The notes beneath the pieces are model-generated. The model was not told the origin of the DNA, searched no databases, and saw only the letters and a list, made by a program, of their open reading frames with translations. From the IMG/VR virus record IMGVR_UViG_3300050188_000002: a DNA stretch of 64,000 nucleotides; one strand, given 5' to 3'. The stretch comes from an uncultured virus (IMG/VR IMGVR_UViG_3300050188_000002) (lineage: Duplodnaviria; Heunggongvirae; Uroviricota; Caudoviricetes). Below are positions 3,201 to 47,803 of this stretch, in pieces. How positions within the stretch are numbered: the first letter of the stretch is position 1; each line of letters opens with the position of its first letter. The translations under genes were made by a program, and so were the position numbers.

Positions 3201-6138
3201 CCGCCAATCGGCGTCTCTCTCGGACCGCCAGTGGGTTGAGGGCTACCTGGCCAACAAGTGGGGGACCACCAGCCGCCTACCGGTCGGCCATCCGTGGAAG
3301 ACTGTAGCACCGACTGGGACGCCCCTCACCCAATTCGGTTCAACCGTCCTGCGTCAGTGGTACGACTTCTCGGACGCCTCGACGGTCTTCACCGACTACG
3401 CCGGAACGATCGCAGCCTCCCCCGGACAGACGGTGGCGTTCATTGCGGACAAGTCCGGGAATGGGAATCACATCCGCCAACTGGACGCGACGAAGCGCCC
3501 GGTCTGGGGCAGCGCGACGATCAACGGGCTGAACACGGTGAAACTCAACAACACCTACGCGTCGTGCCCAAACCCGTTCAACCCGTCGGTCGTCTCGCTG
3601 GCGCCTTCGGGAAACGCGCTCACCCTGGGCGCAGGCAATACGAACCAGCCGACCAACTATTGCCTGATGGACAACCAGTGGGGAGGCGGGACACTGGTCG
3701 GCGGGAACACCGGCAACAACTTCACGCGGTTCGTGGTCAACGGGACGAAGCAGACCTGTCAAGGAATCTCCAGCGGAACGGTCTCGACGCGGGCCGCTCT
3801 GATCTTGGAGAATGCGGACAACATCCCCTGCTCCTTTGATGTGGGGATCATCACGCTGACCGGCAACACAGCATTCGTCCAGAACGGGTACACCCGCGAC
3901 ATGGACAACAGCGCCACGACCTACAAACTTGGCTTTACCTGCAATATGGGTGCGAGCGGCGTTCAGACATTCGCCGGTTCGGTGGTGACCTACACCGGGC
4001 CGACGACCATCAATTCCGGGACGATCGAGGCGTACAACGCCACTGGATGGGCGAGTCCTGTCACGATCAACAACGGTGGAACCTTCAAGGTCTCGAACAC
4101 CGTGCTCCAGACCCAGAATGTGACGATCACCTTGAATGGCGGTGGTACGCTCGTCCACAACGGGCTGACCGCGACCTCCGACTACTGGGTGAACGCCAAC
4201 GCGGCAACCGTGGCCTCTGGCGCCGCAGTCACGATCAACGACACCTCGGTGACCAACGTCACGGGCACCAACAAGGGCACGTTCATGGACGGCGGCCTCA
4301 AGGGCGGTGGGGCTGGGGCCGTGGCAACCATCAGTGTGACCAACGCCGGAAACGGTGTGGTATTCCGCAACAATAACACTACCTTCGCCGGCACGCTGAT
4401 CGTCAACGGCATCGCCAGCGCGACGGTCAATCTCGGAAGCGGCATCGGTGTTGGCGGCTGCACCACTGGCCTCCAGAACGCCGACATCCAGGTGAACGGC
4501 ACGATGGAGATGCTCAACCAGGGTGTCGGTTGGGCGGGCTCCGGGGCGGGGGCGTTCACGATGGGGGCACTCAGCGGGACCGGGGTGGTGATCGGCAACT
4601 TCACTTCGGGGGGTACGACGACCCTGACCGTGGGCAATACGGGCAACGGCGGGACGTTCTCCGGGGTCTTAGCCAATGGCACCGGTAATACGACGGTCCT
4701 CGTGAAAATCGGCGCCGGCACCCAGATCTTGACTGGGGTCAACACATACACCGGCACCACGACTGTCTCCGTCGGCACTCTCCAGATCGGGGATGGTGGA
4801 TCGACGAGCGCAAAACTCGGGACGGGCGCGACGAGCGTCGCATCCGGGGCATCTCTGGTCTTCAACCGCGCTGATTCTCAGACCTATGCCGCAGTCATCA
4901 GTGGTGCCGGCACGGTGACCAAGAACGGGGCAGGCACGCAAACTCTCTCCGCCGCCTGCACATACACCGGCGCGACCTCGGTGCTTGCCGGTATTCTCGA
5001 ACTCGGCGGCGCCGGCACCTTGACGAGCATCACCCCTATCGATATCTCCTCCGGGGCCACCTTCCGCTACGCCAGTTCCGGGACCAGCACGATGTCCGGG
5101 GCGATCACCGGCGCCGGGACGTTCGAGAAGGCTGCAGGCGGCACCCAGTGCATCCTGACCGGCACGAATAGCGGGTTCACCGGCACGTTCTTGTCCACGG
5201 CCGACTACCTCCGGATCGGCGCGAGCGCCGCCGGCAGCGCGAGCGCGGTCTTCAACCTGAATGGCGGCGGCCTGTTGGCGAACACCTCCAGCATCTCGTT
5301 CAACATCGGGGCGCTCACCGGCAGCGGAACGTTCGGGCAGGGCGGGTCCGTGACCAACACCACGGCCACCGTCGGGGCGCTTAACACCAGCACCACGTAC
5401 TCCGGCCAGATCTCGGGCTCGCAGTCGATTGTCAAGGTCGGCACCGGGACGCTCACGCTCTCCGGGACCAACACTCATACCGGATCCACCACGATCAGTG
5501 CTGGGACGCTATCTGTCGCCACCATTGGTAATGGCGGTGTATCTGGAAACCTTGGAGCCGCTGCTACTGCCGCCTCGAACCTAATTATCGGTTCAGCAAC
5601 CCTCGCATACACTGGTGCGACCGCCAGCAGCAACCGCGCCTTCACTCTCGGGGCTGGCTTGAGCAGCAAGATCGACGTGGTGAGCGGAACCACGCTGACC
5701 ATCTCTGGCGGAAACACGGCTACCACCGGGCAGTTGACCAAGAACGGCGCTGGTACTCTTATTCTGACCGGCACCCACCCGGCTACCGGCGGTATCCGCA
5801 GCAACGCAGGTGTACTTCAGTATTCGTCGATGCCGAGTGCCAACACCTTCGTGGTTGGCATGGCGCAGGCCAGCCAGACTACGGCGAACAGTGGCAACTT
5901 CAATTTCAACTTCGCCCCGAACTGGTCAGGCAAGGTAATCAACATCATTATGACCGAGCCGCCTGACGTCAGTACCAATTGGGTTGCTGTCAACTTCAAC
6001 CTCTTGGGTACTGGTACGCCGACCATCCAAGTTAACGGAGTTACTGTAGCCCTCTTCCTCGGACAAGGCGACTCTGGGAACGGTACGCATGTGAACTTCA
6101 GCGGTCTGGGCGGCACTATAACAATAACTCATACATAA
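230..6138 (+). CDS. giant tail fibre/adhesin-like protein with autotransporter passenger-associated beta-strand (PATR-type) repeats and an inserted LamG-like domain (~1960 aa, spans an N gap)
   Basis: ATG at 230 (MSIRGQ). Repeats such as LAKTGTGTLVLAATQTYTGGTTVSQGTLQVG and VKIGAGTQILTGVNTYTGTTTVSVGTLQIG. CTAC flanks both sides of the N gap (543-546, 557-560); collapsing it joins both ORFs in frame. No signal peptide or beta-barrel visible. Confidence 0.75.
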
Positions 6139-9708: not shown

Positions 9709-10440
9709 ATGGCAATTAAGAAAATACTCATTCCAACAACGCCTATTACGCTACCTATATCAAAGGTAGAGGCTAAGATTCGCCCCTATACTACCGGCGA
9801 ACAGAAGACGCTACTACTAACGTCTAAGGAGAATCAATCAGCGGTTGCAAACTCTGTATTGAATCTCATTCATGTATGTTCAGAAGGCACATTATCTAAA
9901 AAGAAATTATCAGAACTTCCTTTTCAAGATATCTTCTATATCTTTACTCAACTCAATGTTCAATCCACTGGTTCTGAGAAGCGGGTTAAACTACCATGTT
10001 CGAATAAGGACTGTGGTATCGATATCCCAGTAATTATCAATGCAGCCAATGCTCAACTTGATAAGACTGAATATGACACCATGGTCAAGTTCAATGACAC
10101 ATCTGGTGTGAAGATGCGCTTGCCCAACCTAGAAATATCCCTTCGTATGACTTCTATTAAAAATTCAACCGAAGGTCTAGATGAGTTCAATGCAATCGTA
10201 TCTTGTATAGCAGACTGTATCGAAACAATCATTATAGACGATGATATACAGAATGCGTCTGATAATAGTCATAAGGATGTAGTCGAATGGGTAGAATCAT
10301 TGCCTAGTACATACTTTACTAAGCTGGCTGATTGGATTAAAGGAATGCCTACAATCCAAAACGTGGTCAATTATAAGTGTGGTAAGTGCGGAACTGAACA
10401 TCAGACCGTAATCAAGGATCTAGACTCTTTTTTCGAATAA
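9709..10440 (+). CDS. T4 gp26-like baseplate hub subunit / tail assembly chaperone
   Basis: RPYTTGEQKTLL, CSNKDC, GVKMRLP, CIETI, CGKCG and C-terminal LDSFF, typical of the gp26 family. Confidence 0.8.
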   Translation: MAIKKILIPTTPITLPISKVEAKIRPYTTGEQKTLLLTSKENQSAVANSVLNLIHVCSEGTLSKKKLSELPFQDIFYIFTQLNVQSTGSEKRVKLPCSNKDCGIDIPVIINAANAQLDKTEYDTMVKFNDTSGVKMRLPNLEISLRMTSIKNSTEGLDEFNAIVSCIADCIETIIIDDDIQNASDNSHKDVVEWVESLPSTYFTKLADWIKGMPTIQNVVNYKCGKCGTEHQTVIKDLDSFFE

Positions 10441-13635: not shown

Positions 13636-14169
13636 ATGTCTAAGATATATATTAAGAAGAAACCAACTAACAAAGGTACTGACTATATTGATAATAAGTT
13701 GGTAACCGAAGAATTGATCAAGTATTCTAACGAGTTTAGGTGCTGTAAAGAAAAAAATTTACCAAGACCAAAGATGTCAGATACCCTTGGTAAGGCTATA
13801 CTTGACATAGCAAACAATATGATCAAGTCACATTACTTCTCTGGTTATACATATAAGGATGAGTTTGCTGCAAATGCTATAGAGTGTATGCTTAGGTATG
13901 CCCACAACTATAATCCCAAGATGGCTGGACCAAACGCTGGCTTCTCTTATCTTTCTATGCTTTGTTATAGAAAATGTCTAAAGACTATTGCAATCGAGAA
14001 AAAGCACAATGAAATAAAGAAACGTGCTATCACTAGAGCAATCATAAATGATAGACACAGAGATTATTCAGACGATTGTGATGTGGTACATTTCATTAAA
14101 GAGAACGACCTAACAGCCGAAATAGAACAACCAAAGAAGAAAAAGAAAATAAAGAAGGTTAAAAAATGA
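13636..14169 (+). CDS. T4 gp55-like late transcription sigma factor
   Basis: YIDNK...LGKAILDIANN...FSGYTYKDEF...AIECMLRYAHNYNP...FSYL. Confidence 0.85.
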   Translation: MSKIYIKKKPTNKGTDYIDNKLVTEELIKYSNEFRCCKEKNLPRPKMSDTLGKAILDIANNMIKSHYFSGYTYKDEFAANAIECMLRYAHNYNPKMAGPNAGFSYLSMLCYRKCLKTIAIEKKHNEIKKRAITRAIINDRHRDYSDDCDVVHFIKENDLTAEIEQPKKKKKIKKVKK

Positions 14170-14372
14170 AATATGAAACAATCCATACTGAGTTTACAAA
14201 TGACGAATTAAGACTCATTGTTAGTAATATATCAAAGGACTATGATCCAATCTCACAAACTCTTCTAGACGAGTATAAGAATGTATTCGAGGGATTAGGT
14301 CATGTGGTCTTTAATGCAATGGTGATAAAGGCTATCCAAACTATGATTGATAAGGAGACTACAAATGAGTGA
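14166..14372 (+). CDS. hypothetical protein
   Basis: 68-aa coupled ORF. Confidence 0.6.
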   Translation: MKYETIHTEFTNDELRLIVSNISKDYDPISQTLLDEYKNVFEGLGHVVFNAMVIKAIQTMIDKETTNE

Positions 14373-14730
14373 TGAAACGCAAGATCAACGTAATTTTTCT
14401 GGTAACGCTCTTCTAAAGGCCACCAATGAGACTATCAATTGGACACCTGAGATGCGAGAAGAGTATAAGAAATGTATGACAGATCCTATTTACTTTACTG
14501 AAAAGTATGTTAAAATCATCAATCAAGACGAAGGATTGATCAACATTAAGATGTATGACTACCAGAAGAGATTGATGGAAGCCATACATACCCAAGACAG
14601 AACTGCGATTCTAATGCCTCGTCAGTCTGCTAAGTGCGTCACCGGAGATACCAAAGTAACAGTTGGTACGCCTCCGGTAGGAATCAAGCGGCTGATTTAC
14701 AATTTATTATTTAGGACCAAAGATGTATAA
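14365..14730 (+). CDS. terminase large subunit (gp17-like) N-terminal fragment fused to a split-intein N-part
   Basis: GNALLK...EYKKCMTDPIYFTEKYVKI...MYDYQK...PRQSAK (Walker A), then CVTGDTKV (intein block A) and a stop after 31 aa; AAGGAG RBS. Confidence 0.85.
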   Translation: MSDETQDQRNFSGNALLKATNETINWTPEMREEYKKCMTDPIYFTEKYVKIINQDEGLINIKMYDYQKRLMEAIHTQDRTAILMPRQSAKCVTGDTKVTVGTPPVGIKRLIYNLLFRTKDV

Positions 14731-16939: not shown

Positions 16940-17715
16940 TTAAGACGGCGTTTATTAGCGACACCCATGGTAACTGGGATATAATGGAACATACCCTTGA
17001 TTGTATAATTAGAGACGGCGTTAAATTAATCGTGCACAGCGGAGATATATGCCCACACTTTGATCAACGTCCAGGCACCGCACTTGATAGGATAGGCCAA
17101 CAGGAGTGGTTCAAGGAATCTTATGTAAGATACTTCCATGAACATCCTGACATAGACTTTGTTATGATCGCCGGCAACCACGACTTCTGTTTTGTAAAAC
17201 CACCATTTTATACACAAAAGTTCAATTGGTATTGGAAGTTCGATGGTAAAGATGATTGGCTTCCATGGGAACAGATCGGATTTGTTCCGCCAGAAATATC
17301 AAAGTATCTACCTAAGAACTTACATATTCTAAACTGTGAAAGTAAAGTAATCCAAGGCATAAAGTTTTTCGGGGTCCCTCATTCTAAAATTTTTTATAAT
17401 TGGTGTTTTAATGTTTCCACTGAGATGTCCAAAGAACTTTGGAACATGGTTCCAACCGATACTCAGATACTTATAAGTCATGGTCCACCTCACGGCATCG
17501 GAGACTATATTAAGAAACGAGATGAACACGTTGGTTGTGAGCATCTTACAGCCCGAGTGCCAGACTTAACTAGTCTAAAGTACATATGCTGCGGTCATAT
17601 TCATCCCGGATACGGGATATATGAGATTGGTAATACGAAGGTTATAAATGCTGCTCTATCAAACGATAACAATCATATCAAGAGCAAACCAATCGTAATA
17701 GATATTGAAAACTAA
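16936..17715 (+). CDS. calcineurin-like metallophosphoesterase
   Basis: ISDTHG, HSGD, AGNHD, SHGPP, GHIH. Confidence 0.9.
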   Translation: MIKTAFISDTHGNWDIMEHTLDCIIRDGVKLIVHSGDICPHFDQRPGTALDRIGQQEWFKESYVRYFHEHPDIDFVMIAGNHDFCFVKPPFYTQKFNWYWKFDGKDDWLPWEQIGFVPPEISKYLPKNLHILNCESKVIQGIKFFGVPHSKIFYNWCFNVSTEMSKELWNMVPTDTQILISHGPPHGIGDYIKKRDEHVGCEHLTARVPDLTSLKYICCGHIHPGYGIYEIGNTKVINAALSNDNNHIKSKPIVIDIEN

Positions 17716-31170: not shown

Positions 31171-31846
31171 ACTTCTTACGTCTTATAATCTTCTTTTTTA
31201 CTTTGGTTTCCACTTCTGCTTTCTCCTTGGCTTCATCAACCAAATCACAGATACGACTTATCACTCCCCATATATCAGCAGGATTACGAATCACGGTGTC
31301 AACCAAGCCGTTTGCCTTCGCTTCATCTGAATCCATGTAAGTATCATGACTCATCATCTTCTTGATGACCGATATCTTCAACCCAGTCTGACTACGATAC
31401 ATCTGTTCCATTAGATCCTGTAACTTCAACATGTTCTCGGTCGAATCATATAAGTCATGGATAGTACCTTCTGTACCAGAACTTAAGCTATGAACCATGT
31501 ATGAGCTACCTGGTAAACAAAATCTCAATCCCTTACGACCTGCTGATGCTATGAAACTTCCAGCAGAGTACGCTTTACCCATCGCCAATGTAGCAACAGG
31601 ACTACGCATCAATACCTGCATGGTTTGAATCAACTCAATGGCACTCAATAAATCACCGCCATATGAACTGACGATTAGTAAAATAGGCTTACCACAATCG
31701 GCATTATCTAAGAATAACATCCTATCTATTACTCGTTTAACTTCTATTTCATTAACCGAGTTTAACCAGATAGTTCGGCTTACCTCTGAGAAGTAACCAC
31801 TACTATCTCCGCCGCTAGGCACATTTACGATTACTTGATTTGACAT
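31169..31846 (-). CDS. clpP: ClpP-like serine protease
   Basis: SSYGGD, GKAYSAGS (catalytic Ser), YMVH, HDTYMDSDEAKANGLVD. Confidence 0.85.
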   Translation of the reverse strand: MSNQVIVNVPSGGDSSGYFSEVSRTIWLNSVNEIEVKRVIDRMLFLDNADCGKPILLIVSSYGGDLLSAIELIQTMQVLMRSPVATLAMGKAYSAGSFIASAGRKGLRFCLPGSSYMVHSLSSGTEGTIHDLYDSTENMLKLQDLMEQMYRSQTGLKISVIKKMMSHDTYMDSDEAKANGLVDTVIRNPADIWGVISRICDLVDEAKEKAEVETKVKKKIIRRKK

Positions 31847-32364
31847 GTTCTAATCTCCTTTATTATATTATTTAAATTGCTTTCTAATTCATCTTTATAT
31901 GATATTCTAACCAGTTTAGCACCGGTTATAAACTCTGTAGTCGTCTTACGGCTATGCTCTGCACATTTTGCAACCCCACACTTTCTACAGCCTTTTCCGG
32001 AGTTTATATGTGCTGACGCTATTATAGCAAAATCGCCATGTTTCCTACATGTTATAGTAACAGGGTTTAAAGCATATTTATATTCAGTGTTTGTATAATC
32101 ATAGGTGTCGCTATGTATTTCTTTTGCTCTTTTTATAAACTCTTCAGTATTAATCTTCCGTTTCCTATTAACGGTCTTACACTTTAAACAACCTTGTCTA
32201 CAACTTAAATGTGCATTTGGTGTAATATTGAACCCCCCATGTATTGGACACGACACAACTACGTACTCAACAGATTTTTTATATTCTGTCTTGTCATACA
32301 AATAAAAGTTCTTATGAACTTCATTTGCTTTGTTTATAAATTCTTGTGTAGTTAAGCGTATCAT
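31831..32364 (-). CDS. zinc-binding repeat protein resembling a homing endonuclease with the nuclease core missing
   Basis: Two FI..A..H...YDY....Y......C..HG.F.....H....GC..C repeats, then directly LVRISY. Confidence 0.6.
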   Translation of the reverse strand: MIRLTTQEFINKANEVHKNFYLYDKTEYKKSVEYVVVSCPIHGGFNITPNAHLSCRQGCLKCKTVNRKRKINTEEFIKRAKEIHSDTYDYTNTEYKYALNPVTITCRKHGDFAIIASAHINSGKGCRKCGVAKCAEHSRKTTTEFITGAKLVRISYKDELESNLNNIIKEIRTCQIK

Positions 32365-34844: not shown

Positions 34845-35721
34845 TTATATTCCCTTATATTTCTTGTTATACCAATCAAGTTTAATAATATCAAAATTAG
34901 CAGGAGATGCCTTAAGATTTCCTTCTGTTACAAATATTTTTTCTGCCATATCTTTTGTTATAATAGGGTTAAATTTGTCATAATCAGCCTGCTTATGTGA
35001 CCAACCCAAACGTAATACCCCATTCAAAATTGCAGCAGGCTTATATCCTTCGTCTATATATTTTTGCATAGACGAATTCCCATCTCTCTTTGACATTTTC
35101 TTTTTTTCCGAAAAATTAGACCAACATGCTGAAACTTAGGCAGTAAACTCCTTCCAAGAACCAAGTTAATATGATGCATCAACGCAACCTGCCTAGCAGT
35201 ATTCGCCATATGGTCAATCCCACGCGATATTACAGAAGTTTCCATGTCAATATCATCAACGCAACTACAAAAGTGATAAACTGGCATACCATCTGATTTC
35301 ATAATTACCATCTTACTAATAATGTTCTTATCATTTGTTGACACTTTAATAGAACCAGAAATCTCGTCGTCCCACATATTAAAACTTCCCAAGTAAATTG
35401 GGTCAGGTACAAAAAAGACTGCTCCTTCTTCTCTTTTTGCAAAGCCGCTCTTTATCAAAAGCTCCGCAACTTCCTTATAACGATCAACTCGCTCAGATTG
35501 CCTAAATGCCAGTTTGTAGTCAAGACCAACCCAATCAAGACATTTAAAAATCTTATCTTCATATTCCTTATTAGACCTTTGTAAGTCGGAATCGTCAATA
35601 CGAAGATAAAACTCTTTACCAAAATGCTTTGATTGTAAATAGTTAAAATACGCAGTTCTAATGCCTGCTATGTGAAAATGACCTGTAGGACTAGGAGCAA
35701 ATCGGTATGATATACATGCAT
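34845..35721 (-). pseudogene. gltX: glutamyl-tRNA synthetase-like catalytic domain (no anticodon-binding domain), frameshifted as assembled
   Basis: RFAPSPTGHFHIAG, LRIDDSD, RQSER, YHFCSCVDD, RGIDH, KMSKRDG, LGW. Frame breaks at the A7 run (35101-35107) and between the ATGs and RFAPSP. Confidence 0.8.
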
Positions 35722-36197: not shown

Positions 36198-36809
36198 TTA
36201 TACGCCATGCTGTTTACCTGTCAACTCCTCTTCTACCACCTTATTCATACGGTCATATCTCTTACGCCTCCCCTTCTTTCCTATAGTACGTTCTACCCCC
36301 TCCCACCTCTTCTTACATATGGCCCTACTCATCTCTACACTCTTATCACTTATAAAATATCTACACCCCTTCCCGCTCATCCTACTAATACGCCTCCTCT
36401 CTCCCAAATACGCCTCCTGCCTACCAAATACCTTCTCTAACTCCTTATATCCCCACCCCTCACATAATCCTAACATGTTTATTGGTAACCCTACTTCTAA
36501 CTCCTTTATACACCGTATCCCATTTATAAACTTTAAGGCCCCCCTTAAACTTATATCATCCTTCTTATATACCTTGTCTGCCCCAAAGGTATAACTAATC
36601 TCACAATGACTTATCTTCTCAAATCCATTCGGATTCTTATGGAAATAATCCCGATGTAACTCCTCATCCCAATGATACAACCTTATACCCTTTATCAAAC
36701 GTTCCTCATCACGGATCTTTAACCCATTCTCTTCTATCCCTATCTTCAACCCACGTATCCCTCGCCAAAATTTTAATAAATCTGTCCTACTAATGTATAT
36801 CATCTTCAT
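36198..36809 (-). CDS. basic hypothetical protein
   Basis: 203 aa, very purine-rich coding strand. Confidence 0.6.
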   Translation of the reverse strand: MKMIYISRTDLLKFWRGIRGLKIGIEENGLKIRDEERLIKGIRLYHWDEELHRDYFHKNPNGFEKISHCEISYTFGADKVYKKDDISLRGALKFINGIRCIKELEVGLPINMLGLCEGWGYKELEKVFGRQEAYLGERRRISRMSGKGCRYFISDKSVEMSRAICKKRWEGVERTIGKKGRRKRYDRMNKVVEEELTGKQHGV

Positions 36810-37060
36810 AAAGTGTTAATCCCCGTTTTCCTATGACTATTAAGTAATTATCCACATTTTTTCACTTATGCATCATTGGTCTCTAAAATAGGGGTATATG
36901 CCCCTTTGAGCCTCATTTGTGTTATAAGGTGTGAGATTCTCTACCTTTCTCATACAATGTCACATATGATGTCTTATATGATCGGTTTATCATACGCTGT
37001 TGCAGGCTTACGCACCCCTGGAACTTGGAGACTATAATTTTCTGTCTTTACAGAAATGTC

Positions 37061-37190
37061 GAAAAGGTCAAAAAGGTCTGAAACGCCTGTAATACGCGAA
37101 ACTCTGAAAAGGTGTAAAAGGTCTTGTTTTAACTTCATTAAAAAGCGTGGTTTATGAAAAGGTGTAAAAGGTCTTGTTCATAAACGCCTG
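37061..37190 (+). repeat. direct repeats (iteron-like)
   Basis: TGAAAAGGTGTAAAAGGTCTTGTT at 37105 and 37155, variant GAAAAGGTCAAAAAGGTCT at 37061, AAACGCCTG twice. Confidence 0.8.
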
Positions 37191-37294
37191 AAAATAAGGT
37201 ACTTACACAATATGCAACCCGGCCCTGTTATCCTCATGTTTTCCACAATGTAAGGTGTATAACAGGGTATTTTTCATGGTAGGCGGGGGTCAAT

Positions 37295-37322
37295 TTGACA
37301 AACGAAAACCCGGCCCTATAAT
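37295..37322 (+). promoter_or_regulatory. consensus sigma70-type promoter
   Basis: TTGACA-16nt-TATAAT. Confidence 0.75.
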
Positions 37323-37357
37323 GCACCCGTGGCCGGTCCCCCCGCCCACCCTGCCGC

Positions 37358-37918
37358 CCCCGGCCATGCCTCCTATACCCCGCCCCCCGCGCCCCCCGCG
37401 CGGCGGGGTTTCATTTTCGTTGCATTGGTTATCCGACCTTGGTAAACGAAGTATGAACCCCGCCGTTTGATTCATGTATCATTCCCCTTTCCGATACGGG
37501 TATAAATTCCCGTGTCTTTATCATATAGGCAATGTCGCCCTTATGATTCCCTCCCATCCGGCATCCCCGGAGATTGGTTCTACCATGTCCACCGCTACTC
37601 CTGCTCCCACCGCCATTGCCGCCCTCGCCTCCAAAATCGCCGCCGCCAAGGAAGAAAACAAGGCTATGTCGCGCAAGGTGAACGAAGCCTGCCAATCGCA
37701 AGCCTTCACCGTCGCCTCGCGGAATGCGACTCTCAAGCGTCAAATGGTTTCCTGTTCCTCTGCCGAATTTCAGGCCCGCGCCGCCGACCTCGCCTTGTCG
37801 TCCTTCGGTAAGGATGCTGAAAGCATCAAGGGAATCCGTAAGGAAGTCCGCGCTCTCATCAAGTAAGTGCTAAGGGGGAAGCGCGGGGCGCGATGGGGTA
37901 TGGGAGGCATGGTCGGGG
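37358..37918. repeat. GC-rich inverted repeat pair flanking ORF 37585-37866
   Basis: CCCCGGCCATGCCTCCTATACCCC (37358-37381) vs reverse complement of 37895-37918, 22/24 identical. Confidence 0.8.
37585..37866 (+). CDS. small Ala/Lys-rich hypothetical protein
   Basis: MSTATPAP..., GGAG upstream, C-ending codon bias. Confidence 0.65.
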   Translation: MSTATPAPTAIAALASKIAAAKEENKAMSRKVNEACQSQAFTVASRNATLKRQMVSCSSAEFQARAADLALSSFGKDAESIKGIRKEVRALIK

Positions 37919-39358
37919 AAAGCAGGTATTAGTCAATCAATGTTATACACATTGCGTTTCGCTCACCTTTTCGGAGGTTTGCTAGGCGCAATTATAACAT
38001 TGATAAGACCCAACTATACCAAAAACTTGAAAGACCTTTTCATAAACCACATTATAAAATGGAGTTGTAAACAATTCCAAGAGACTTATGAGTTAAAAAG
38101 TCCGAATGAGGTTATAAGCCTATTGCATAAGACCCTTGCAATGAGTCTTTAATCGAGAGAGGAAAAGGGGTAATAAAGGAAAACACTCTAATGCGTTAGA
38201 GTTGGTATAAATGAAAAGCGTGTATTACACACGACTTAGAAACTAAAATGTAATAAGAGAATATCTTTTGCGAATAAGTAGAAACTCCCTGTGAGATATA
38301 CGAGTTCAATAGAAGATAAGGTTATGACACCTTCCAACCAAATTGGTTATGACCTAATAGGCTAACGCTTATTTACTTGACGCTTTATCATGGCGTAGCA
38401 TAATATGCAAAAAGTGATATAATACATTAGGAATAAACTAGTGTATGAGGGAGGCTTGCAATCCGGAGCAAGTACAAAATACAAGGTATCAATTGAGACT
38501 TGTGAAACAACGAACAAATCGCTTTATGCGATAAAGAGTTTAACTCATATGTTCAATGTGTAATGATAACAATTGATATAACAATTAAATAAAAGCAATC
38601 TGAACCGTGTTCAGATATTCGCCTTATAAGGTTTAGCGACTTTATAAGGTTATACCTTATATGCGATCAATTAATAGAGGTTTATCATACCTCTCGATCG
38701 TACTCATATAAGATTATCCATCTTAAACTTTGAAAAGGGGTTTAAGATGATTTGTCTGTGGTTATCATATTTTCAGAAATCTCCTAGGAGAGAATATGGG
38801 AACATTTATCCACGGTTAACTTTCCTTCCTTTTATAGGAGTCGGTTATGACCTTCAATGAAAATACTCGTGAGTTGGTGCGGAATTTCAGGAAGTTTAGT
38901 GCAATCGCTCACAAATTCCCAAGCGATATAAACTTGGAGGTGTTGCGCCGCATGGAAAATGACCTCTGGGACATTGTGGGTGTTCTAATAAAATGATGAA
39001 TAAGGCAATCAAACATTACATTGATTGACCACCAGTTACATCTTGATCTCCGACAGGAGTTTAAGATGATTTTACATTTCTCGAAGATGGGCTCCCACAT
39101 ATTAAACCACTGGGCCTAATCATCTTTAAGAAGTATGTCCTATTTAACTCGGACACGGGTTAAATAAGGTTCTCAGCCGATTGCGCTCACACGCACTTTT
39201 CAAATCATTTGGAAATTTGAGCGTACTCAATCCGCTGCTCTGAATCCTTTACTCAGAAATGAGTATTAGGATTATTTGTTTTAAATCTCATCTAACTACT
39301 GATGAGTTAGTATCTTACACTATCTTGTAAGAAACCCTCCTTATATAGGAGAATTACC

Positions 39359-39700
39359 ATGCGTTTCGTAGGACCCATCGCCCTGTGCCTTTTGTCCAAT
39401 GGTTGCGCCACCTGCAATGCTTCGCAAGCCGAAGTCGAACGCAGGGCCACCGCCTATCATACTGGATACGGTGTTCCTGCCGTTCAAACCGGTATGCTCG
39501 CAACTGGTGCGGTGTTCTTTCCGCCCATCGTGTTGTCCATTCCCCTTCCGCTGGTTGATTCCGCTTTGCAAAACTTGGCCGCGGAAGACAATGCACGCTT
39601 CGACCTTCATTACGAAGAACTCCAAACCAAATACGGCCCGTGTCCCAATCCCGAATTCATCCTCACCGAATCCGGCTGGCGTAAACCCGGCTTGTTCTAA
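39359..39700 (+). CDS. putative lipoprotein/membrane protein
   Basis: AGGAG RBS, signal-like LCLLSNGC, second hydrophobic segment. Confidence 0.6.
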   Translation: MRFVGPIALCLLSNGCATCNASQAEVERRATAYHTGYGVPAVQTGMLATGAVFFPPIVLSIPLPLVDSALQNLAAEDNARFDLHYEELQTKYGPCPNPEFILTESGWRKPGLF

Positions 39701-39708
39701 TTCATTTT

Positions 39709-39741
39709 ACCATTAACCTCGGAAACGGGGTTAATGGTTTT
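39709..39741 (+). terminator. intrinsic terminator
   Basis: ACCATTAACCTCG-GAAA-CGGGGTTAATGGT-TTT. Confidence 0.7.
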
Positions 39742-39805
39742 CAAACCCCTATCTAATTATTGATAGGTATGTATCTTACACATACTTGTAAGAATAAATC
39801 CTTTC

Positions 39806-40039
39806 ATGGAGGTTTCCAAAATGGATACCAACGAAGTGATCGTGTCTGGTAAGCGTCCTGGTGGTAAGCGGCGGGCTTTCAAGGTTCAGAAACGCGTTGA
39901 AGCCGAAGCCCGTCAAGCCAAGTTCAATTCCCTTACTATTCAACAGAAGTTGGAACGTGCTCAGAGGCACGGAGCGAAAAAGGAAATCGCTAAGTGGTCG
40001 AATCAATTGGCTGATGTGCCGCCTTCCAAAAAGAAGTAA
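39806..40039 (+). CDS. small basic hypothetical protein
   Basis: 77 aa; the real start may be MDTN after GGAGG. Confidence 0.6.
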   Translation: MEVSKMDTNEVIVSGKRPGGKRRAFKVQKRVEAEARQAKFNSLTIQQKLERAQRHGAKKEIAKWSNQLADVPPSKKK

Positions 40040-40115
40040 AAATCCTTTTCCAAACTTTCCTTTTCACTTTAAAGTGACACTTATCATATAGGTGAACCCT
40101 CCAAAGGAGTTATAT

Positions 40116-40424
40116 ATGATTCTTTCCGACAAAGCCATTGCATCTATCGTGCGTGAAGGTATCCTCGCTCGTAAGACTGCTTCCGCCAAACAGTTCAAAC
40201 GCCATGATGCCGGTATCACCGACATTGATCGCATCAAGGACATCACCAAAGCCCAAGGCGGCCTCCGTTCCGCCAAGATGACCACAGACGAATCCAAGCG
40301 GTTCCATCACGCCCATCCGAATGGCAAGTTCGAGATTGGTGAAGATGTGTTTCATGTCGGCACCCACCTTTTCAACATCAAGGTTGGCGTTGGTGCCGAA
40401 GCTCCGCAGTTGTACGTCGCATAA
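40116..40424 (+). CDS. hypothetical protein
   Basis: AAGGAG RBS, start MILSDK. Confidence 0.65.
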   Translation: MILSDKAIASIVREGILARKTASAKQFKRHDAGITDIDRIKDITKAQGGLRSAKMTTDESKRFHHAHPNGKFEIGEDVFHVGTHLFNIKVGVGAEAPQLYVA

Positions 40425-40487
40425 AACCCTTTCCTCTTTAGACTTAAGTGTTTAAAGAGGATTTTTAAATCTTATTAGGACACCATC

Positions 40488-41144
40488 ATGGAAAATGATT
40501 TCAAACTTTGGGATGGAAGTTATGATAAGACTTGGTATGATATACGACTTCCATCTGGTGAAGTTTTGACCTGTTGGCCTAATGCTGGATGTATGATGTC
40601 AATGGATGGATCGGGTCGTACATGGCTTCCAAAAGATAATATTGAAGTCAGGTTTGGACAAAGTCCTTTTAATAAGGTATAATGATGTTTGAAATCCTAT
40701 GGCATTGGAAATGTGATAGGTGTTACAAGGTTATTATTGCTCCTCAAAATCATAGACCTGAGAAATGGTCTTGGTTTAAGGAGGATGGAGCACTTAAACA
40801 TTCTTGTGATACATGTGTTAAACCTTTAGACATTCAACTTGGTAAAATGAGTCGGTGTCAAAAGTAAGGACTATTGAACTTTCAACCGGAGAATAAACAT
40901 GTCTACTCTAACCACAAAGTTAGAAGAGGGGTTTAACTTATTTGAAATGATTCTTGATGTAAAGGATAAGGCAGCAGATCAAGGATTGATTCAAACTGTT
41001 GAATTGTATCAAACTCGTTTAATTCAATTAAAAAGTAGCATCACAGACATTATTAAGAAATGTCCTCCAGGGTTCTTACCTCCTATTGAAGATTTTCAAG
41101 AGAAGTATAGGGGTGTTTATAGGACTTTATTAAAGAATTCTTAA
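40488..41144 (+). CDS. three small hypothetical proteins (40488-40682, 40682-40867, 40899-41144)
   Basis: Consecutive ORFs with RBS; the middle one has two CxxC motifs. Confidence 0.55.
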
Positions 41145-41154
41145 CCCATTTAAA

Positions 41155-41229
41155 GTCCTCGTAGCTCAGTTGGATTAGAGCGGCTGCCTTCTAAGCAGCA
41201 GGTCGATGGTTCGAGTCCATCCGGGGACA
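41155..41229 (+). tRNA. tRNA-Arg(TCT)
   Basis: Full cloverleaf GTCCTCG...CTTCTAA...GGTTCGAGTCC...CGGGGAC-A. Confidence 0.93.
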
Positions 41230-41252
41230 TTTCCTTTTTAAGGATATCAAGC

Positions 41253-41858
41253 ATGCGCAACTATGAAATCACTTATAGGTCTTTGTCTGTTCCGTATGAA
41301 CGGATGGTTGTGATTCAAGCCGCATCTGACATGTATGCCAGACAAATTTGCAGGAGTCGGTTCCCCGATTGTCATGCAATCAAGTGGTGCAAGGAAGTTT
41401 CAGATAAGAAGGCTGAGATTGCATCTTTGATGCCTGTTCAAGTGTTTCATACAGTTGTCGAAAACGAATTTAAATGTACTTCCCACGAGTGTGAGTACAC
41501 CTTCGACGACTATGTGAATGATTACGAATTCCAAAAGACTCACAAACGTGAGATTTTGAAGACTCCGTATAAGAAGGAAACGATTTGGAGTAGTACTATC
41601 GAATGTATTGCTCGTTTCTTCGCAGTTCTCCAAGTTTGTTGTTGGGTTCCTGGGATTCCTATAGGGGTTTGTACCCTGTTAGGTGTGATCCTTTTGTGGA
41701 ACGAAGGGGTTTCCGAACGTCAATGGGGTTGGATTTGGCTTTCTGTGGGTCTGAATTTGATTCCAATTGGGATCTCACTGGTGTTTTACAGTGTGCATTC
41801 CACGGGAATCTTTAAAGAAGTTGCATACTTAGAGGCTGAAGGATGGGTTGAGAAGTGA
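41253..41858 (+). CDS. hypothetical membrane protein
   Basis: Two C-terminal TM segments. Confidence 0.65.
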   Translation: MRNYEITYRSLSVPYERMVVIQAASDMYARQICRSRFPDCHAIKWCKEVSDKKAEIASLMPVQVFHTVVENEFKCTSHECEYTFDDYVNDYEFQKTHKREILKTPYKKETIWSSTIECIARFFAVLQVCCWVPGIPIGVCTLLGVILLWNEGVSERQWGWIWLSVGLNLIPIGISLVFYSVHSTGIFKEVAYLEAEGWVEK

Positions 41859-41865
41859 AATTAAA

Positions 41866-41900
41866 GGTTTAGGACTTTGAAAAGGGTTCTAAGCCTTTTT
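41866..41900 (+). terminator. intrinsic terminator
   Basis: GGTTTAGGACTTT-GAAA-AGGGTTCTAAGCC followed by a T run. Confidence 0.75.
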
Positions 41901-42000
41901 TTATTTCGGTTTTCGAGAAAATTCCAAGCGATTACGATGCGATGTGTGTGACATATCGCCGATAAATATCCTTATCAGGATATAAAAGGACAAAACAACC

Positions 42001-44001
42001 ATGGCTTCCCTCAAATTGAACTCTCATCACGCTCCGATCACTCGCAACGAACTGCTTGCTCAGCTTCGTCATCTGTCTACCAACAGTTTGGTGTCTAAGG
42101 AAGACGAATTGAAAGCTGCTGTGAAGGCTGCGAATACTCCGGAAGAAGTTGCTGAAGCCAAGGCACATTTGGCAGACTTCCGTGCTCCGGCCACGAACAT
42201 GATGAAGGTGAAGAAGGAGTTGAACGCCTTGGACGCCGAAATCGGAAGTAATCGTCCGACGAAGGCGCAGTTGGCCAAGCGTGGTGAACTTTTGGCTAAG
42301 AAAAAGGAATTGGACGGATACCTTATCCAATTTCAGAAGGAGGTTAACACCTTTTTGAATCCGGCTACTGACTTGATCCGTTTGGATGAGCGGTTGATTC
42401 TCCAAGTATTGAAAACCGGCCGTGAGTCTGTGGAATCTTCGAAGGTTGCGGCCGACAACATGATCAAAGTCATGGGACAGGCGATTGAAGCCCAGAAGAC
42501 GAAGATTTCTGACACCCAGGCTTTGATGCAGTCCGACAAGGTGAAGTCCATCAAGGATAGCTATCAGTTGATCATGGCTGATGCCCATGATTTCGTTGCC
42601 GAGTCCAACAATAAGATCGAAAAGTATCAGAAAGAATTGAAAAAAGAGTTGGAATCCTTGTCCAAAGTGAAGTTGGACGTGGTTGCCACTGCTTCGTCCG
42701 AAGAGAAGTCTTCGGCTCGTGAGGCAGCAGAGGTCAAGGTGAAAGAGTTGGAAGACGCTCGTTCGGCTGAATTGATGGCATTCGATGCTTCCAAGGTTCC
42801 GGGATATACTGAAGCCGAGAACAAGGAGACTTTCCGTCGTACCGAGATGGTTAAACACAACGAGATTGTGACCAAGAAGTACGAGAAGGATTTGAAACAG
42901 GCTCAGGAGCAACTTGGGAAGGTTATGAAAGCCGAGTATCAGGCTGCTCATGGGAAGAAGGACTTGAAGCAGGGATCAGAAACTCCTGCGGTTCAGGTTG
43001 TGAAACAGATTACCGATTACATCAACAGTGTGAAGAATGATTCTGACGAGAAGTCTATCTTCTTTGATAATCCTATGGTCTTGAAGTCTGAGTTGGTTGG
43101 TGCGAACCGTGATTTGTTGGAGAGCATTATCCCAGAGGAGTATAAGGCGAAGTTCCAAAAGGTGTTAGACACTATGGGTGCGATGCAATCGGCGTTAGAA
43201 AGCCGTGAACGTAGAGTTGCAGACGCCTATGCTCAACTTGAAGAGACTCCTGGTGCCAAGGGAGAAGTTGAAGAGTGGTTGACTTTGGACAAGGTTCTGA
43301 AGCACCAGTCGATGGTACTTGGAAAGATGATGGTAGAGAAGGAGCGTCGTGAGCGAGCCGTTAAACACGGGGTGTTCGCTGATGAGAAGCCTGTTGAAGT
43401 GAAGTCTGATTTCAATTTGTCATTGATGGATAAGTCGAAGGTTGGATACGGGTTCGATCGTTCCGGGCCTGGTATGAATGACTCGAAGTTGAAGCGTATG
43501 GAGATTCAAACTGACCTTGGGGTTGATGATCCTTTGATGATGGTGTACTTCTATGAAGGTATCAAGAAGTTGGTATCTTCTGGAAACAAGCGTTGGGTGA
43601 ACGAGAACATCATGGGAAGTTCTGGTGAGAACATCAAACGTGAGCCTAACACCGATGGCGCAAAGGACAAGGGCGACAAGAGTGGAACGTTCAATGTGGA
43701 CACCCAAAATCAAAATTACTTCTTACGCGACTTGACTGCCATCTCTGGTCGCAAGTGGTGGGATATTGGTAAGGGTAACATCTGGCGTTCCATTGCTGCA
43801 AAGGCGATGGCAGCCGGTGTGCGTGATATGGGTACCACTGGTGATCGCAGGGCTGAGTTGGTTGACCAGTTGGAAGCCAACACCGTTATTCATCGCAAGG
43901 ATAAGTCTCCTGAAGAAGTTGCTAGGTTGAATGACGAGCGCGAGCGTCTTCAGAAGGCATTGGTGGTCATTGACGCTGGTGCAAACCGCAAGGGCATGTA
44001 A
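42001..44001 (+). CDS. large coiled-coil protein, possibly a late virion/internal protein
   Basis: 666 aa, K/E/A-rich; GATAAATA at 41961; terminator hairpins on both sides. Confidence 0.7.
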   Translation: MASLKLNSHHAPITRNELLAQLRHLSTNSLVSKEDELKAAVKAANTPEEVAEAKAHLADFRAPATNMMKVKKELNALDAEIGSNRPTKAQLAKRGELLAKKKELDGYLIQFQKEVNTFLNPATDLIRLDERLILQVLKTGRESVESSKVAADNMIKVMGQAIEAQKTKISDTQALMQSDKVKSIKDSYQLIMADAHDFVAESNNKIEKYQKELKKELESLSKVKLDVVATASSEEKSSAREAAEVKVKELEDARSAELMAFDASKVPGYTEAENKETFRRTEMVKHNEIVTKKYEKDLKQAQEQLGKVMKAEYQAAHGKKDLKQGSETPAVQVVKQITDYINSVKNDSDEKSIFFDNPMVLKSELVGANRDLLESIIPEEYKAKFQKVLDTMGAMQSALESRERRVADAYAQLEETPGAKGEVEEWLTLDKVLKHQSMVLGKMMVEKERRERAVKHGVFADEKPVEVKSDFNLSLMDKSKVGYGFDRSGPGMNDSKLKRMEIQTDLGVDDPLMMVYFYEGIKKLVSSGNKRWVNENIMGSSGENIKREPNTDGAKDKGDKSGTFNVDTQNQNYFLRDLTAISGRKWWDIGKGNIWRSIAAKAMAAGVRDMGTTGDRRAELVDQLEANTVIHRKDKSPEEVARLNDERERLQKALVVIDAGANRKGM

Positions 44002-46673: not shown

Positions 46674-47000
46674 ATGCCGCGTCAAAAGACTGGTGATATT
46701 CAGAAGGCCGATCGGTTGGTTCGTAAGTTACTGAATAAACTCCCTGTGAGATATCGTCAATTAGCAATCGCTAATTTCGATTCGGATTGTGGGAAGCAAT
46801 ACGTTGGAGAAAATAGAGGTAACCGGTATATTGCTCTTGGTGCTTCTGAGATCTTGAAAAAGGTTCGAAGCCCAGCTGACGCGTTAGACTGGGCGTTTTT
46901 ATGGAATCATAGCAATGAGGGCTCAGCGTTTTGGAGTTCAGTGATTGAAGGTCTCAGAAGTGGAGGCCCTCTTCCTCCTCTCCCTTCCTCAACTCTATAA
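46674..47000 (+). CDS. hypothetical protein, paralogue family A
   Basis: LPVRYRQLAIANF...EGSAFWSSV...PLPPLP. Confidence 0.7.
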   Translation: MPRQKTGDIQKADRLVRKLLNKLPVRYRQLAIANFDSDCGKQYVGENRGNRYIALGASEILKKVRSPADALDWAFLWNHSNEGSAFWSSVIEGLRSGGPLPPLPSSTL

Positions 47001-47803
47001 GAAAAAAAACAATAAAGGAGACTCCAATGACCTAGAGTCATCCATAAAAGTGATTCTTTCACAGCTGCCTTACAAGGCACCTAAAGAAGACCTCGTGTTA
47101 CCATACTACGAATCGCGTTTTATCCGTAATGGATGACCCAACAAATGTGTGGCCCCCAGCGCTATAGACAGAAAGAGGTTCTCTATGTGATTAACTAATA
47201 TTGGAGATGGACTATTCTACTTTGTCGGTTTATGTTTAACCGATGACTATGTCTTGTGTTGGATATGTAATCCTAACAAGAAGAGTTGTGCACGATTCGC
47301 GGTAAACACAACTTTAACTCCGATCGCGGAAGACCTGTGACGTGGTTGTTACAGGCTTTAAAAGTTCTTATCTTTATAAGATAAGAGATACACCTGCCAT
47401 GGCGGTTACTAGGAAGTCTTTAACCATGGTATTCTGATGAATCCTAGTGAGACGGTGCATACAAAACTGCGTATGATGCCCTGAGGTTGTAAAAGAGCCT
47501 CAAATCTACCCATAAGCCTCAGCAGGGAGGCATTCTACATCACATCGCTGGCTCAAGATAGCCCTAAGATGCACATCAAAGTGTATCAAAGCCCTTTTCA
47601 AAGGGGTTATGTGGTGTTGCGAAATGTCGTGTTGCGAAATGTCGTGTCAGTACCAAAAACTGACAGGGACAGTGGACTTGTATTTCTATTTCTATTTCTA
47701 TTTCTATAGAACACAATGATAATGAGAGATTTGGTTACTTACAAGTTCAACCGATATTCGACGATCGGTTTCGCTATCTTCCTTTAAATTTTAAGGATAA
47801 GTC

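Follow-up and report, generated by a model that had tools for sequence, protein, structure and literature searches.

What is a stretch of about 1.4 kb, crowded with hairpins and seemingly devoid of genes, doing in the genome of a phage? The first-pass annotation had offered two answers for this locus, one or more large structured RNAs or a signal in single-stranded DNA. We have analysed it within the 64,000 nt of DNA that surround it (hereafter the window). Judging from the features of the sequence, we favour a third reading, to which we give about half of our credence: the stretch would be a cassette array in a plastic region of the T4 type, and its hairpins would be of three kinds, namely a family of terminators, hairpins over Shine-Dalgarno (SD) sites and palindromes at the junctions between cassettes. 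The array likely also includes one small gene, three orphan terminators and an early RNA unit of ~330 nt. Seen in this way the locus is most likely a succession of small early transcription units, hence a plastic region of rather common type; a single giant RNA or a DNA signal is improbable. The features that we have identified are collected in Table 1.

Table 1. Features of the hairpin-rich stretch (positions within the window).
Feature	Position	Strand	Characteristics
Long imperfect hairpin H1	37932..38009	+	UUCG loop at the apex, ~30 pairs; immediately 3' of GC-rich cassette
Inverted iteron copy	38034..38074	-	80% over 41 nt to unit 37124-37163
ORF-free spacer with + strand-specific structure	38075..38376	+	GGTTATGAC twice (38320, 38345)
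Tandem sigma-70-type promoter-like sites	38377..38423	+	TTGACG-16-CATAAT plus extended -10 TGATATAAT; consensus matches only
Predicted promoter-to-terminator unit	38430..38760	+	~330 nt, 5-6 hairpins, z -5.7
Family hairpin H11	38719..38749	+	13 pairs, GAAAA loop, tail ATTTGTCTGT; terminator-like; no ORF before
ORF49, 49-aa ORFan gene	38847..38996	+	AGGAG at -11; SD inside small hairpin; codon score 0.186
Hairpin with inverted third copy of TCAATCAATGT	39004..39033	.	15 nt, 93% complementary to 37932-37946
Family hairpin H14	39039..39068	+	GACA loop, tail ATTTTACATT; 43 nt after ORF49 stop
Family hairpin H15	39137..39170	+	CTCGGACACGGG core; no U-rich tail; no ORF before
Irregular hairpin H16	39174..39237	+	Predicted fold
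Family hairpin H17	39243..39273	+	GAAA loop, tail ATTTGTTTT
Junction motif	39269..39351	+	Second copy 39728-39811, 73% over 85 nt (self-comparison)

A distant T4-type phage and the search for its relatives

The contig that carries the window is a singleton of 167,681 bp. It encodes a gp55-like late sigma factor (13636-14169; PHROG 234, E 8.5e-32) that retrieved 1323 phage records by tblastn, mostly from Escherichia and Synechococcus phages and with a best identity of 33%, together with a baseplate hub (9709-10440), a polynucleotide kinase, ThyX, MazG-like, PhoH and ClpP proteins and four tRNAs. By its gene content the phage is best classified as a distant T4-type myovirus.

The neighbourhood of the stretch, on the other hand, is made of ORFans. 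None of the eleven ORFs scanned in 36198-44001 (those at 36198, 37474, 38847, 39359, 39806, 40092/40116, 40488, 40682, 40899, 41253 and 42001) matched a Pfam or PHROG family. Three proteins, of 666, 113 and 49 aa, match only themselves, the first of them having been searched among 5.8 billion proteins. For a 203-aa neighbour there was neither a family nor a phage match in tblastn, and its Atlas matches were at chance level. Nothing was found either by blastn of 37400-39800 against phage records, by scanning IMG/VR for relatives with three flanking proteins, by comparing the junction motif and the PhoH protein with metagenome contigs or by comparing a 93-aa ORF of the adjacent GC-rich cassette with genome contigs. 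A search of IMG/VR with the pattern of the iterons (see below) returned four loci, none of them similar to the window by blastn or tblastx, and we have discarded them as chance matches. A single contig spans 33000-43000 with uniform depth and without joints or ends (contigs, by their nature, cannot show termini). One DNA sequencing run, possibly the source, was found to contain the stretch, and no RNA run.

Coding potential of the stretch

The stretch had been described as having no credible genes. This holds for 37930-38846 and for 38997-39358 (917 and 362 nt respectively, ORF-free as far as can be told) and fails between them, where ORF49 is a credible gene. We have used a codon-usage score trained on the 37 long ORFs of the window, and ORF49 obtains 0.186 per codon, the mean of the training genes being 0.188. 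An exhaustive protein search returned an identical 49-aa record, called as a protein in a public collection, and no relatives. A 70-aa ORF at 37940 is weak (codon score 0.019, without SD) and a 40-aa ORF with a GTG start (38441-38563) is doubtful, its codon score being borderline (0.127). When 20 stop-to-stop frames of 30-92 aa were compared with Pfam and PHROG nothing appeared below E 0.05, and the recoding of stops (TGA as W, TAG and TAA as Q) opened no long ORF in 38153-38846. A point against the cassette array is the length of this DNA: the 917 nt lacking an ORF far exceed a PeSL of ~100 bp (see below), and the array can make of them no more than a spacer, a scar or a small RNA. The amount of non-coding DNA, which had been considered unusual for a phage, is not unique to this place: the window is 84% coding and contains three further gene-poor gaps of 850-1036 nt, as delimited by a crude gene call.

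Stretches like this could be the decayed remains of former genes or cassettes, retained for spacing only. Some traces of this kind can be recognized. An 18-nt exact copy of 46737-46754, which is part of the ORF 46674-47000, is located at 38282, the start region of ORF49 (at 38843) recurs as GGTTATGACCT at 38345, three of the terminator-like hairpins described below are orphans, and a window of 30 codons (38092-38181) has a coding-like score of 10.4, above the 95th percentile of shuffled sequences (9.4). This last window is A/G-rich, however, and has two stops inside, none of the frames gives a family match, and no decayed paralogue of the region is detected by tblastx elsewhere in the window. 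Folding far above that of shuffled sequences (see below) is also unexpected for drifting DNA, and we consider decay very unlikely as the explanation of the stretch.

One feature connects ORF49 with the genes that follow. Short hairpins of the CTCC..GGAG type cover the SD in seven of the eight genes located between 38847 and 41253, versus 9 of 48 elsewhere, and in the cassette array this covering would be one of the ordinary jobs of its hairpins.

RNA structure and strand asymmetry

All the hairpins previously listed (37936-38004, 38186-38206, 38598-38616, 38719-38749, 39039-39068, 39137-39170 and 39243-39273) were found where they had been placed and all are predicted to fold, the first of them as part of the longer hairpin H1. 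Their loops had been described as GNRA-type, which is correct for the GAAA loops and incorrect for the GACA ones. The comparison with dinucleotide shuffles that had been suggested as a check also gave a clear result on both strands, with structure that exceeds chance: RNA folding of 37930-38850 has a z of -7.9 on the + strand and -4.5 on the - strand (20 shuffles each). Using 100 shuffles per strand, the values for the + and - strands were -4.0 and -1.25 in 38010-38427, -5.7 and -4.9 in 38428-38760, and -8.3 and -5.0 in 38997-39358, i.e., the + strand surpasses the - strand in all four RNA comparisons. With DNA parameters the folding becomes nearly symmetric (z -6.4 and -6.9 on the two strands). 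Since DNA parameters give the two strands alike, the difference seen with RNA comes from the G.U pairs, and in these folding models it points to RNA of the + strand as the structured molecule, leaving room for a role at the level of DNA. The symmetry and strength of the DNA folding are, for their part, an observation that does not favour the cassette array. Counting G.T against A.C in the stems was of no help: under a strict filter the result was 3 versus 3, and composition confounds the comparison. When 120-nt windows (1065 of them) were folded on both strands and their MFE was regressed on GC, 38281-39300 came out as the top-ranked ~900 nt for structure in the 64 kb, whichever the strand.

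This amount of structure raises the question of whether one or two large, functional and strand-specific structured ncRNAs of a new class occupy 38010-38750. Such an RNA could be the long 3' UTR of the transcript that starts at 37295 or could begin at the promoters at 38377/38415, and the family hairpins would then be 3' ends. Several of the results already described could be accommodated, such as the 917 nt without a credible ORF (either with table 11 or with TGA, TAG or TAA recoded), the lack of Pfam and PHROG matches in the stop-to-stop frames and the excess of the + strand in the two segments that make up 38010-38760. A second ORF-free stretch of the window (47005-47800) behaves likewise (z -5.35 on the + strand and -3.10 on the - strand), and a long-range helix that joins ~38305-38321 with ~38824-38840 is kept in both the MFE and the centroid folds. 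The rest of the evidence goes in the opposite direction. The excess stability is mostly due to discrete local hairpins, a promoter (38377-38423) sits in the middle of the stretch and no alternative pairing competes with the terminator hairpin H11. Rfam was equally unhelpful to this idea: over the stretch no family matches at the gathering threshold, nor when E is allowed to reach 5. The best matches within 37300-40100, with E 2.1-4.9, are far below gathering, and with the covariance models of Rfam 15 the four tRNAs alone reach the gathering score in the 64-kb window. Large ncRNAs thus seem unlikely to us, and what survives of the original proposal of "one or more large structured RNAs" is the structure in + strand RNA, not its continuity, given that the stretch breaks into ORF49, family hairpins, SD hairpins and the junction motif. 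More ambitious still would be to suppose that 38010-38760 and 47005-47800 produce large (0.3-0.9 kb) + strand-specific structured early ncRNAs of an undescribed class, acting in host takeover or counter-defence, instead of being spacer between cassettes; we regard this as a decidedly speculative possibility.

A riboswitch or attenuator at H11 was considered separately and rejected: with the 3' arm blocked, the 5' arm is left unpaired and no antiterminator pairing is seen.

A family of terminator-like hairpins

Part of the stretch is made up by members of a family of eight + strand hairpins, half of which are packed into 555 nt of it (38719, 39039, 39137 and 39243, that is, H11, H14, H15 and H17). 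The other four are outside the region, at 39709, 41863, 44015 and 62277, and are strong + strand hairpins with GAAA-type loops. They begin 5-14 nt past the + strand stops at 39700, 41858, 44001 and 62265, a position that makes them look like terminators. We aligned the eight hairpins on loop-centred windows. All eight align with an invariant G and two A in the loop (GAAA or GACA) and with an apex of the form C-G / U.G / C-G, and the U.G pair at one stem position is retained in six of them, a point in favour of structure at the RNA level on the + strand. T-rich tails follow seven of the eight. The exception is H15, and the absence of a U-rich tail there is an observation against the cassette array. 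A covariance model made from the eight recovers all of them at 27-40 bits and only on the + strand (their reverse strands do not exceed 16 bits), and gives one further match at E below 0.01, at 17595 (22.5 bits). The eight were selected for folding, so that the pair counts do not prove the structure independently; the informative points are the shared apex, the conserved wobble and the placement after stop codons.

Five of the eight follow a stop codon, namely the four outside the region plus H14, and H11, H15 and H17, having no credible ORF before them, are the orphan terminators mentioned above. H11 and H14 are paralogous (38719-38753 versus 39039-39072, 80% over 35 nt) and have dG values of -12 to -15, and the core of H15, CTCGGACACGGG (CTCGGA-ACGGG), is common to the terminators at 39709 and 62277. 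The form of an intrinsic terminator, a hairpin plus a U-rich tract, fits H11, H14 and H17, with 6-8 T of 10 in their tails. From their shape and location the family hairpins look like phage-specific intrinsic terminators. In a cassette array those at 38719, 39039, 39137 and 39243 would act as terminators or attenuators, insulating small cassettes and stabilising 3' ends, and the three without a gene could be scars or duplicates left by the turnover of cassettes or the ends of small early RNAs (e.g. 38430-38760).

Promoters, junctions and the cassette array

The promoter reported at 38377 (TTGACG-16-CATAAT) was found, as a 10/12 match to the consensus, with the extended -10 TGATATAAT downstream of it at 38415. 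An early-type promoter of perfect consensus (12/12 class) is located at 37295 and, besides these two, there is a further site of 10-12/12 at 40655. Near-consensus sigma-70 promoters are frequent throughout the window, with 22 sites of at least 10/12, four of them 12/12. None of the five exact window copies of TATAAATA, which we take to be the T4 late promoter motif, falls in the region. The host sigma-70 RNA polymerase would read rightward from the early-type promoters at 37295, 38377 and 38415, and the hairpins would form in the resulting + strand RNA and do ordinary jobs there. Downstream of the tandem promoters, the predicted unit of Table 1, which includes H11, is likely an early RNA in this model, either non-coding or carrying the doubtful 40-aa GTG ORF.

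The other recurrent element is the junction that closes the stretch. In both of its copies the order is the same: the 3' arm of a terminator with its T-run, a weak -35-like site, a palindrome over a -10-like site and an SD hairpin. The palindrome, TATCTTACAC-N3-CTTGTAAGA, has two copies in the window when 0.01 would be expected. Both junctions directly precede the ATG of the next ORF, these being two consecutive ORFs, and the one at 39269-39351 is closed by a CTCCT/AGGAG SD hairpin, followed by the ATG at 39359. The hexamers, as judged by eye, match the consensus at ~7-9/12 with spacers of 15-16, and neither copy reaches 10/12 in the scan. With its palindrome over a -10-like site and its recurrence before two consecutive ORFs, the 85-nt terminator/promoter/SD junction resembles the PeSL cassettes behind gene shuffling in the hyperplastic regions of T4-type phages. 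From sequence features, folding and gene positions we infer the way in which the array would work, including transcription, termination and recombination.

PeSLs (promoter-early stem-loops; Arbiol et al. 2010, PMC2839356; Comeau et al. 2014, PMC4122927) are described as intergenic elements that combine a sigma-70-like promoter with a stem-loop terminator containing G-T pairs. This stem-loop often separates the promoter boxes or overlaps them, and an SD and an ATG form the end of the motif (PMC2839356; PMC4122927). They sit among ORFans and mediate the gain and loss of cassettes in the hyperplastic regions of T4-type phages (PMC2839356; PMC4122927). Their promoter and terminator activity has been assayed with a lacZ fusion vector (PMC2839356). 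As far as these descriptions go, the likeness is considerable. The T4-type genome and the ORFan setting are shared, and so are the stem-loop terminator, the AT-rich DNA, the promoter-like boxes, the stem-loop over the -10 and the SD followed by an ATG. The PeSL copies of one genome resemble each other, and the two junctions found here are 73% identical over 85 nt. Measured against the same accounts there are also differences. The stems here are AU-rich with an apex of the CUCG-GAAA-CGGG type, whereas those of PeSLs are GGGG...CCCC; the promoter part of the junction is weak, with two full junction copies in the window; several stem-loops stand without a gene; and a PeSL is ~100 bp, compared with the 0.9 kb of ORF-free DNA here. 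The strong sigma-70 promoter that defines PeSLs being weak in the junction is another of the observations against the cassette array.

If the cassette array is correct, the promoter/terminator cassette logic known from T4 relatives among the coliphages and vibriophages would also apply to this singleton, a very distant T4-type phage of plant-associated metagenomic origin. The phage would have a hairpin family of its own, with an AU-rich stem, a conserved U.G and a loop of GAAA or GACA. Such hairpins would offer a handle at the sequence level and could be used to mark cassette borders and early units in ORFan-rich genomes. The ~0.9 kb of ORF-free, strand-specifically structured DNA and the cluster of iterons would be candidates for an early phage RNA and for an oriE-like origin, respectively.

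Stable hairpins between T4 genes have an older precedent. Tuerk and colleagues (Tuerk et al. 1988) reportedly found stable C(UUCG)G tetraloop hairpins in the intercistronic regions of T4. Very stable tetraloop hairpins between cistrons are what both cases have in common, and H1 has an apical UUCG loop; the difference resides in the recurrent GAAA and GACA loops found here and in the conserved U.G, two pairs below the pair that closes the loop.

The left edge and a candidate origin

The left edge of the stretch has a different character. Three direct iteron units, of which two share 24 identical nt, are found at 37054, 37099 and 37149 (spacing 45 and 50), outside the stretch in 37054-37178, and two inverted copies inside it, one at 37965 within H1 and the other at 38034. 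H1 carries a DnaA-like box (TTATACACA) at 37943 and an inverted iteron core (37964-37982), and has an extended -10 (TGTTATAAT) on its - strand at 37999. All four window copies of AAAAGGTCT are at the left edge and iteron area, as are 8 of the 23 copies of AAAAGGT. Of the 25 DnaA-like boxes of the window (at most one mismatch), five are within 36848-38806; the + strand carries all five, and a single one is perfect. This cluster is only suggestive after allowing for scanning, the expectation being ~0.8 per 2 kb. A further observation against the cassette array is the extension of iterons and DnaA-like boxes into the leftmost 150 nt of the stretch. Genes run leftward from 36809 and rightward from ~37295; the point of transcriptional divergence, which had been placed at the stretch itself, is actually ~1 kb further to the left, between these two positions. 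Cumulative GC skew reaches its lowest point at 37-40 kb.

Taken together, hairpins and repeats could be the DNA signals of an origin similar to oriE of T4, in which an early promoter would prime through AT-rich DNA. According to the T4 review (PMC3016281), the direct repeats of oriE are evenly spaced and an early promoter is required, and oriE, oriF and oriG occur at transcriptional divergences with a shift in composition (PMC3016281). Evenly spaced direct repeats, an early promoter (perfect in the case of 37295) and a divergence with a compositional shift are also present here, matching the features of oriE in that account; to these can be added the inverted iteron copies, the local concentration of AAAAGGTCT and of + strand DnaA-like boxes, the change of strand and the skew minimum. 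As an explanation of the stretch, though, we consider such an origin quite unlikely. Most of the features are to the left of the stretch, with H1 and a single iteron copy as the only ones within it. Correction for scanning leaves the DnaA-box cluster weak, with one perfect box, and the GC skew also tracks the direction of the genes. From 38400 onward the hairpins would act in RNA, to judge by the RNA-type asymmetry and the conserved U.G. Next door no initiator protein was recognized nor, in comparison with oriE as described in that review, a repE-like gene, and the repeats themselves differ, with 24 nt at a spacing of 45-50 nt here and 12 nt in oriE. By analogy, an oriE-like origin at 36.8-38.1 kb is a fair candidate, mainly in DNA outside the stretch.

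The early suggestion of a DNA signal had included the control of injection or packaging. An injection-stop or packaging signal like the iss of T5 would be the closest parallel, its region being described in a preprint (bioRxiv 10.1101/866236) as untranslated and rich in repeats, inverted repeats and palindromes, with 8 DnaA boxes. A long untranslated stretch, repeats, inverted repeats, palindromes and some DnaA-type boxes can all be seen here as well. The phage is T4-type and not T5-like, however, the ordered set of 8 DnaA boxes of that description is absent (two of the five DnaA-like boxes are inside the coordinates of the stretch, neither of them perfect), and nothing indicates a terminal repeat, all of which makes this parallel extremely improbable. 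In summary, of the proposed DNA signal the origin part has support only at and beyond the left edge, by virtue of the iterons, the DnaA-like boxes and the skew minimum, and the injection and packaging part found no support.

Returning to the cassette array, its immediate neighbours deserve a comment. The GC-rich ORFs at 37585-37866 and 39359-39700 have AT-rich flanks and promoter- and terminator-like sites of their own, recalling the morons of lambdoid phages, which are independent transcription units of deviant base composition according to 'The moron comes of age' (PMC3594210). Morons, as presented there, are not defined by conserved flanking motifs, unlike the junctions found here. No homologues of these two genes were found. 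The first of them belongs to the GC-rich cassette located between the two sets of iterons, which comprises the perfect promoter at 37295 and the ORF at 37585-37866 (93 aa, GC3 0.68). Its C-rich leader (37350-37397) pairs with a G-rich trailer (37876-37926), and the modelled transcript folds at a z of -11.7.

The strand switch and its flanks

The divergent gene blocks are separated by an iteron cluster (36848-37265), located at the GC-skew minimum, in which three units are spaced 45-50 nt apart and two of the three are identical over 24 nt. This arrangement, iterons with DnaA boxes at a point of divergence, resembles T4 oriE as described in PMC3016281. To its left, the + strand is extremely rich in pyrimidine between 35900 and 36800, with a GC skew reaching -0.75, a tract that spans an orphan 203-aa gene (36198-36809, - strand) and the adjoining small ORFs.

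Between the iterons and the hairpin-rich stretch lies a cassette (37265-37930) with a GC content of 55-72%, compared to ~35% in its surroundings. The 5' leader is C-rich and the 3' trailer G-rich, 37350-97 being complementary to 37876-926 (78% over 51 nt), and the modelled transcript is predicted to close as a panhandle (z -11.7). Since transcripts crossing the cassette in both directions would each end in a G-rich RNA tract, the formation of R-loops at this location is conceivable.

Predicted signals and repeats at the strand switch and in the second ORF-free stretch
Feature	Position	Strand	Context
Sigma-70 consensus, perfect	36224	-	Inside 3' end of 203-aa gene
DnaA box, perfect	36848		Iteron cluster
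DnaA boxes, one mismatch each	37228 and 37239		Iteron cluster
Perfect consensus promoter (predicted), TTGACA-16-TATAAT	37295		GC-rich cassette
93-aa ORF, GC3 0.68	37585-37866		GC-rich cassette
Extended -10 promoter (predicted)	37999	-	Faces GC-rich cassette
Tandem repeat, 15-nt unit x2	near 47611		Second ORF-free stretch
Tandem repeat, TATTTC x4	near 47683		Second ORF-free stretch

Hairpins and repeats to the right

For seven of eight consecutive small genes at 38847-41253, the Shine-Dalgarno site lies in a short hairpin of the pyrimidine/purine type (CTCCT-TATAT-AGGAG or TCCTT-TTT-AAGGA, for example); in the rest of the window these hairpins appear at 9 of 48 genes. A second stretch without ORF, of about 0.8 kb (47005-47800), had no match in Rfam, and its RNA structure is biased to the + strand (z -5.35, versus -3.10 on the - strand). 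An exact 18-nt repeat is found on the same strand in the ORF-free spacer of the hairpin-rich stretch (38282-38299) and within the coding sequence of ORF 46674-47000 (46737-46754).

Possible host-like and disrupted genes

One gene (568-6138), just downstream of an N run at 547-556, codes for a protein of 1856 aa in which PATR autotransporter-type repeats occur six times; the gene has a GC content of 62% versus about 38% for the phage. Genes at 20.5-23.2 kb are likewise GC-rich (51-58%). Together this suggests a recent acquisition of host-like genes.

At 34845-35715 (- strand) there is a GluRS/Glu-Q-RS-like catalytic domain (Pfam tRNA-synt_1c, E 4.8e-15), with HIGH-type and KMSKR motifs recognized by eye. 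No ATG, GTG or TTG start was found upstream of the HIGH motif, and a frameshift in an A-run immediately ahead of KMSKR splits the domain. This could mean that the gene is now a pseudogene, that it contains a sequencing error or that it is recoded. Elsewhere, a 127-aa ORF (14347-14730) that matches terminase large subunit profiles only in part (PHROG 5989, positions 89-172 of 347) and an HNH endonuclease gene (31831-32364) flanked by clpP and phoH hint at split or invaded genes.
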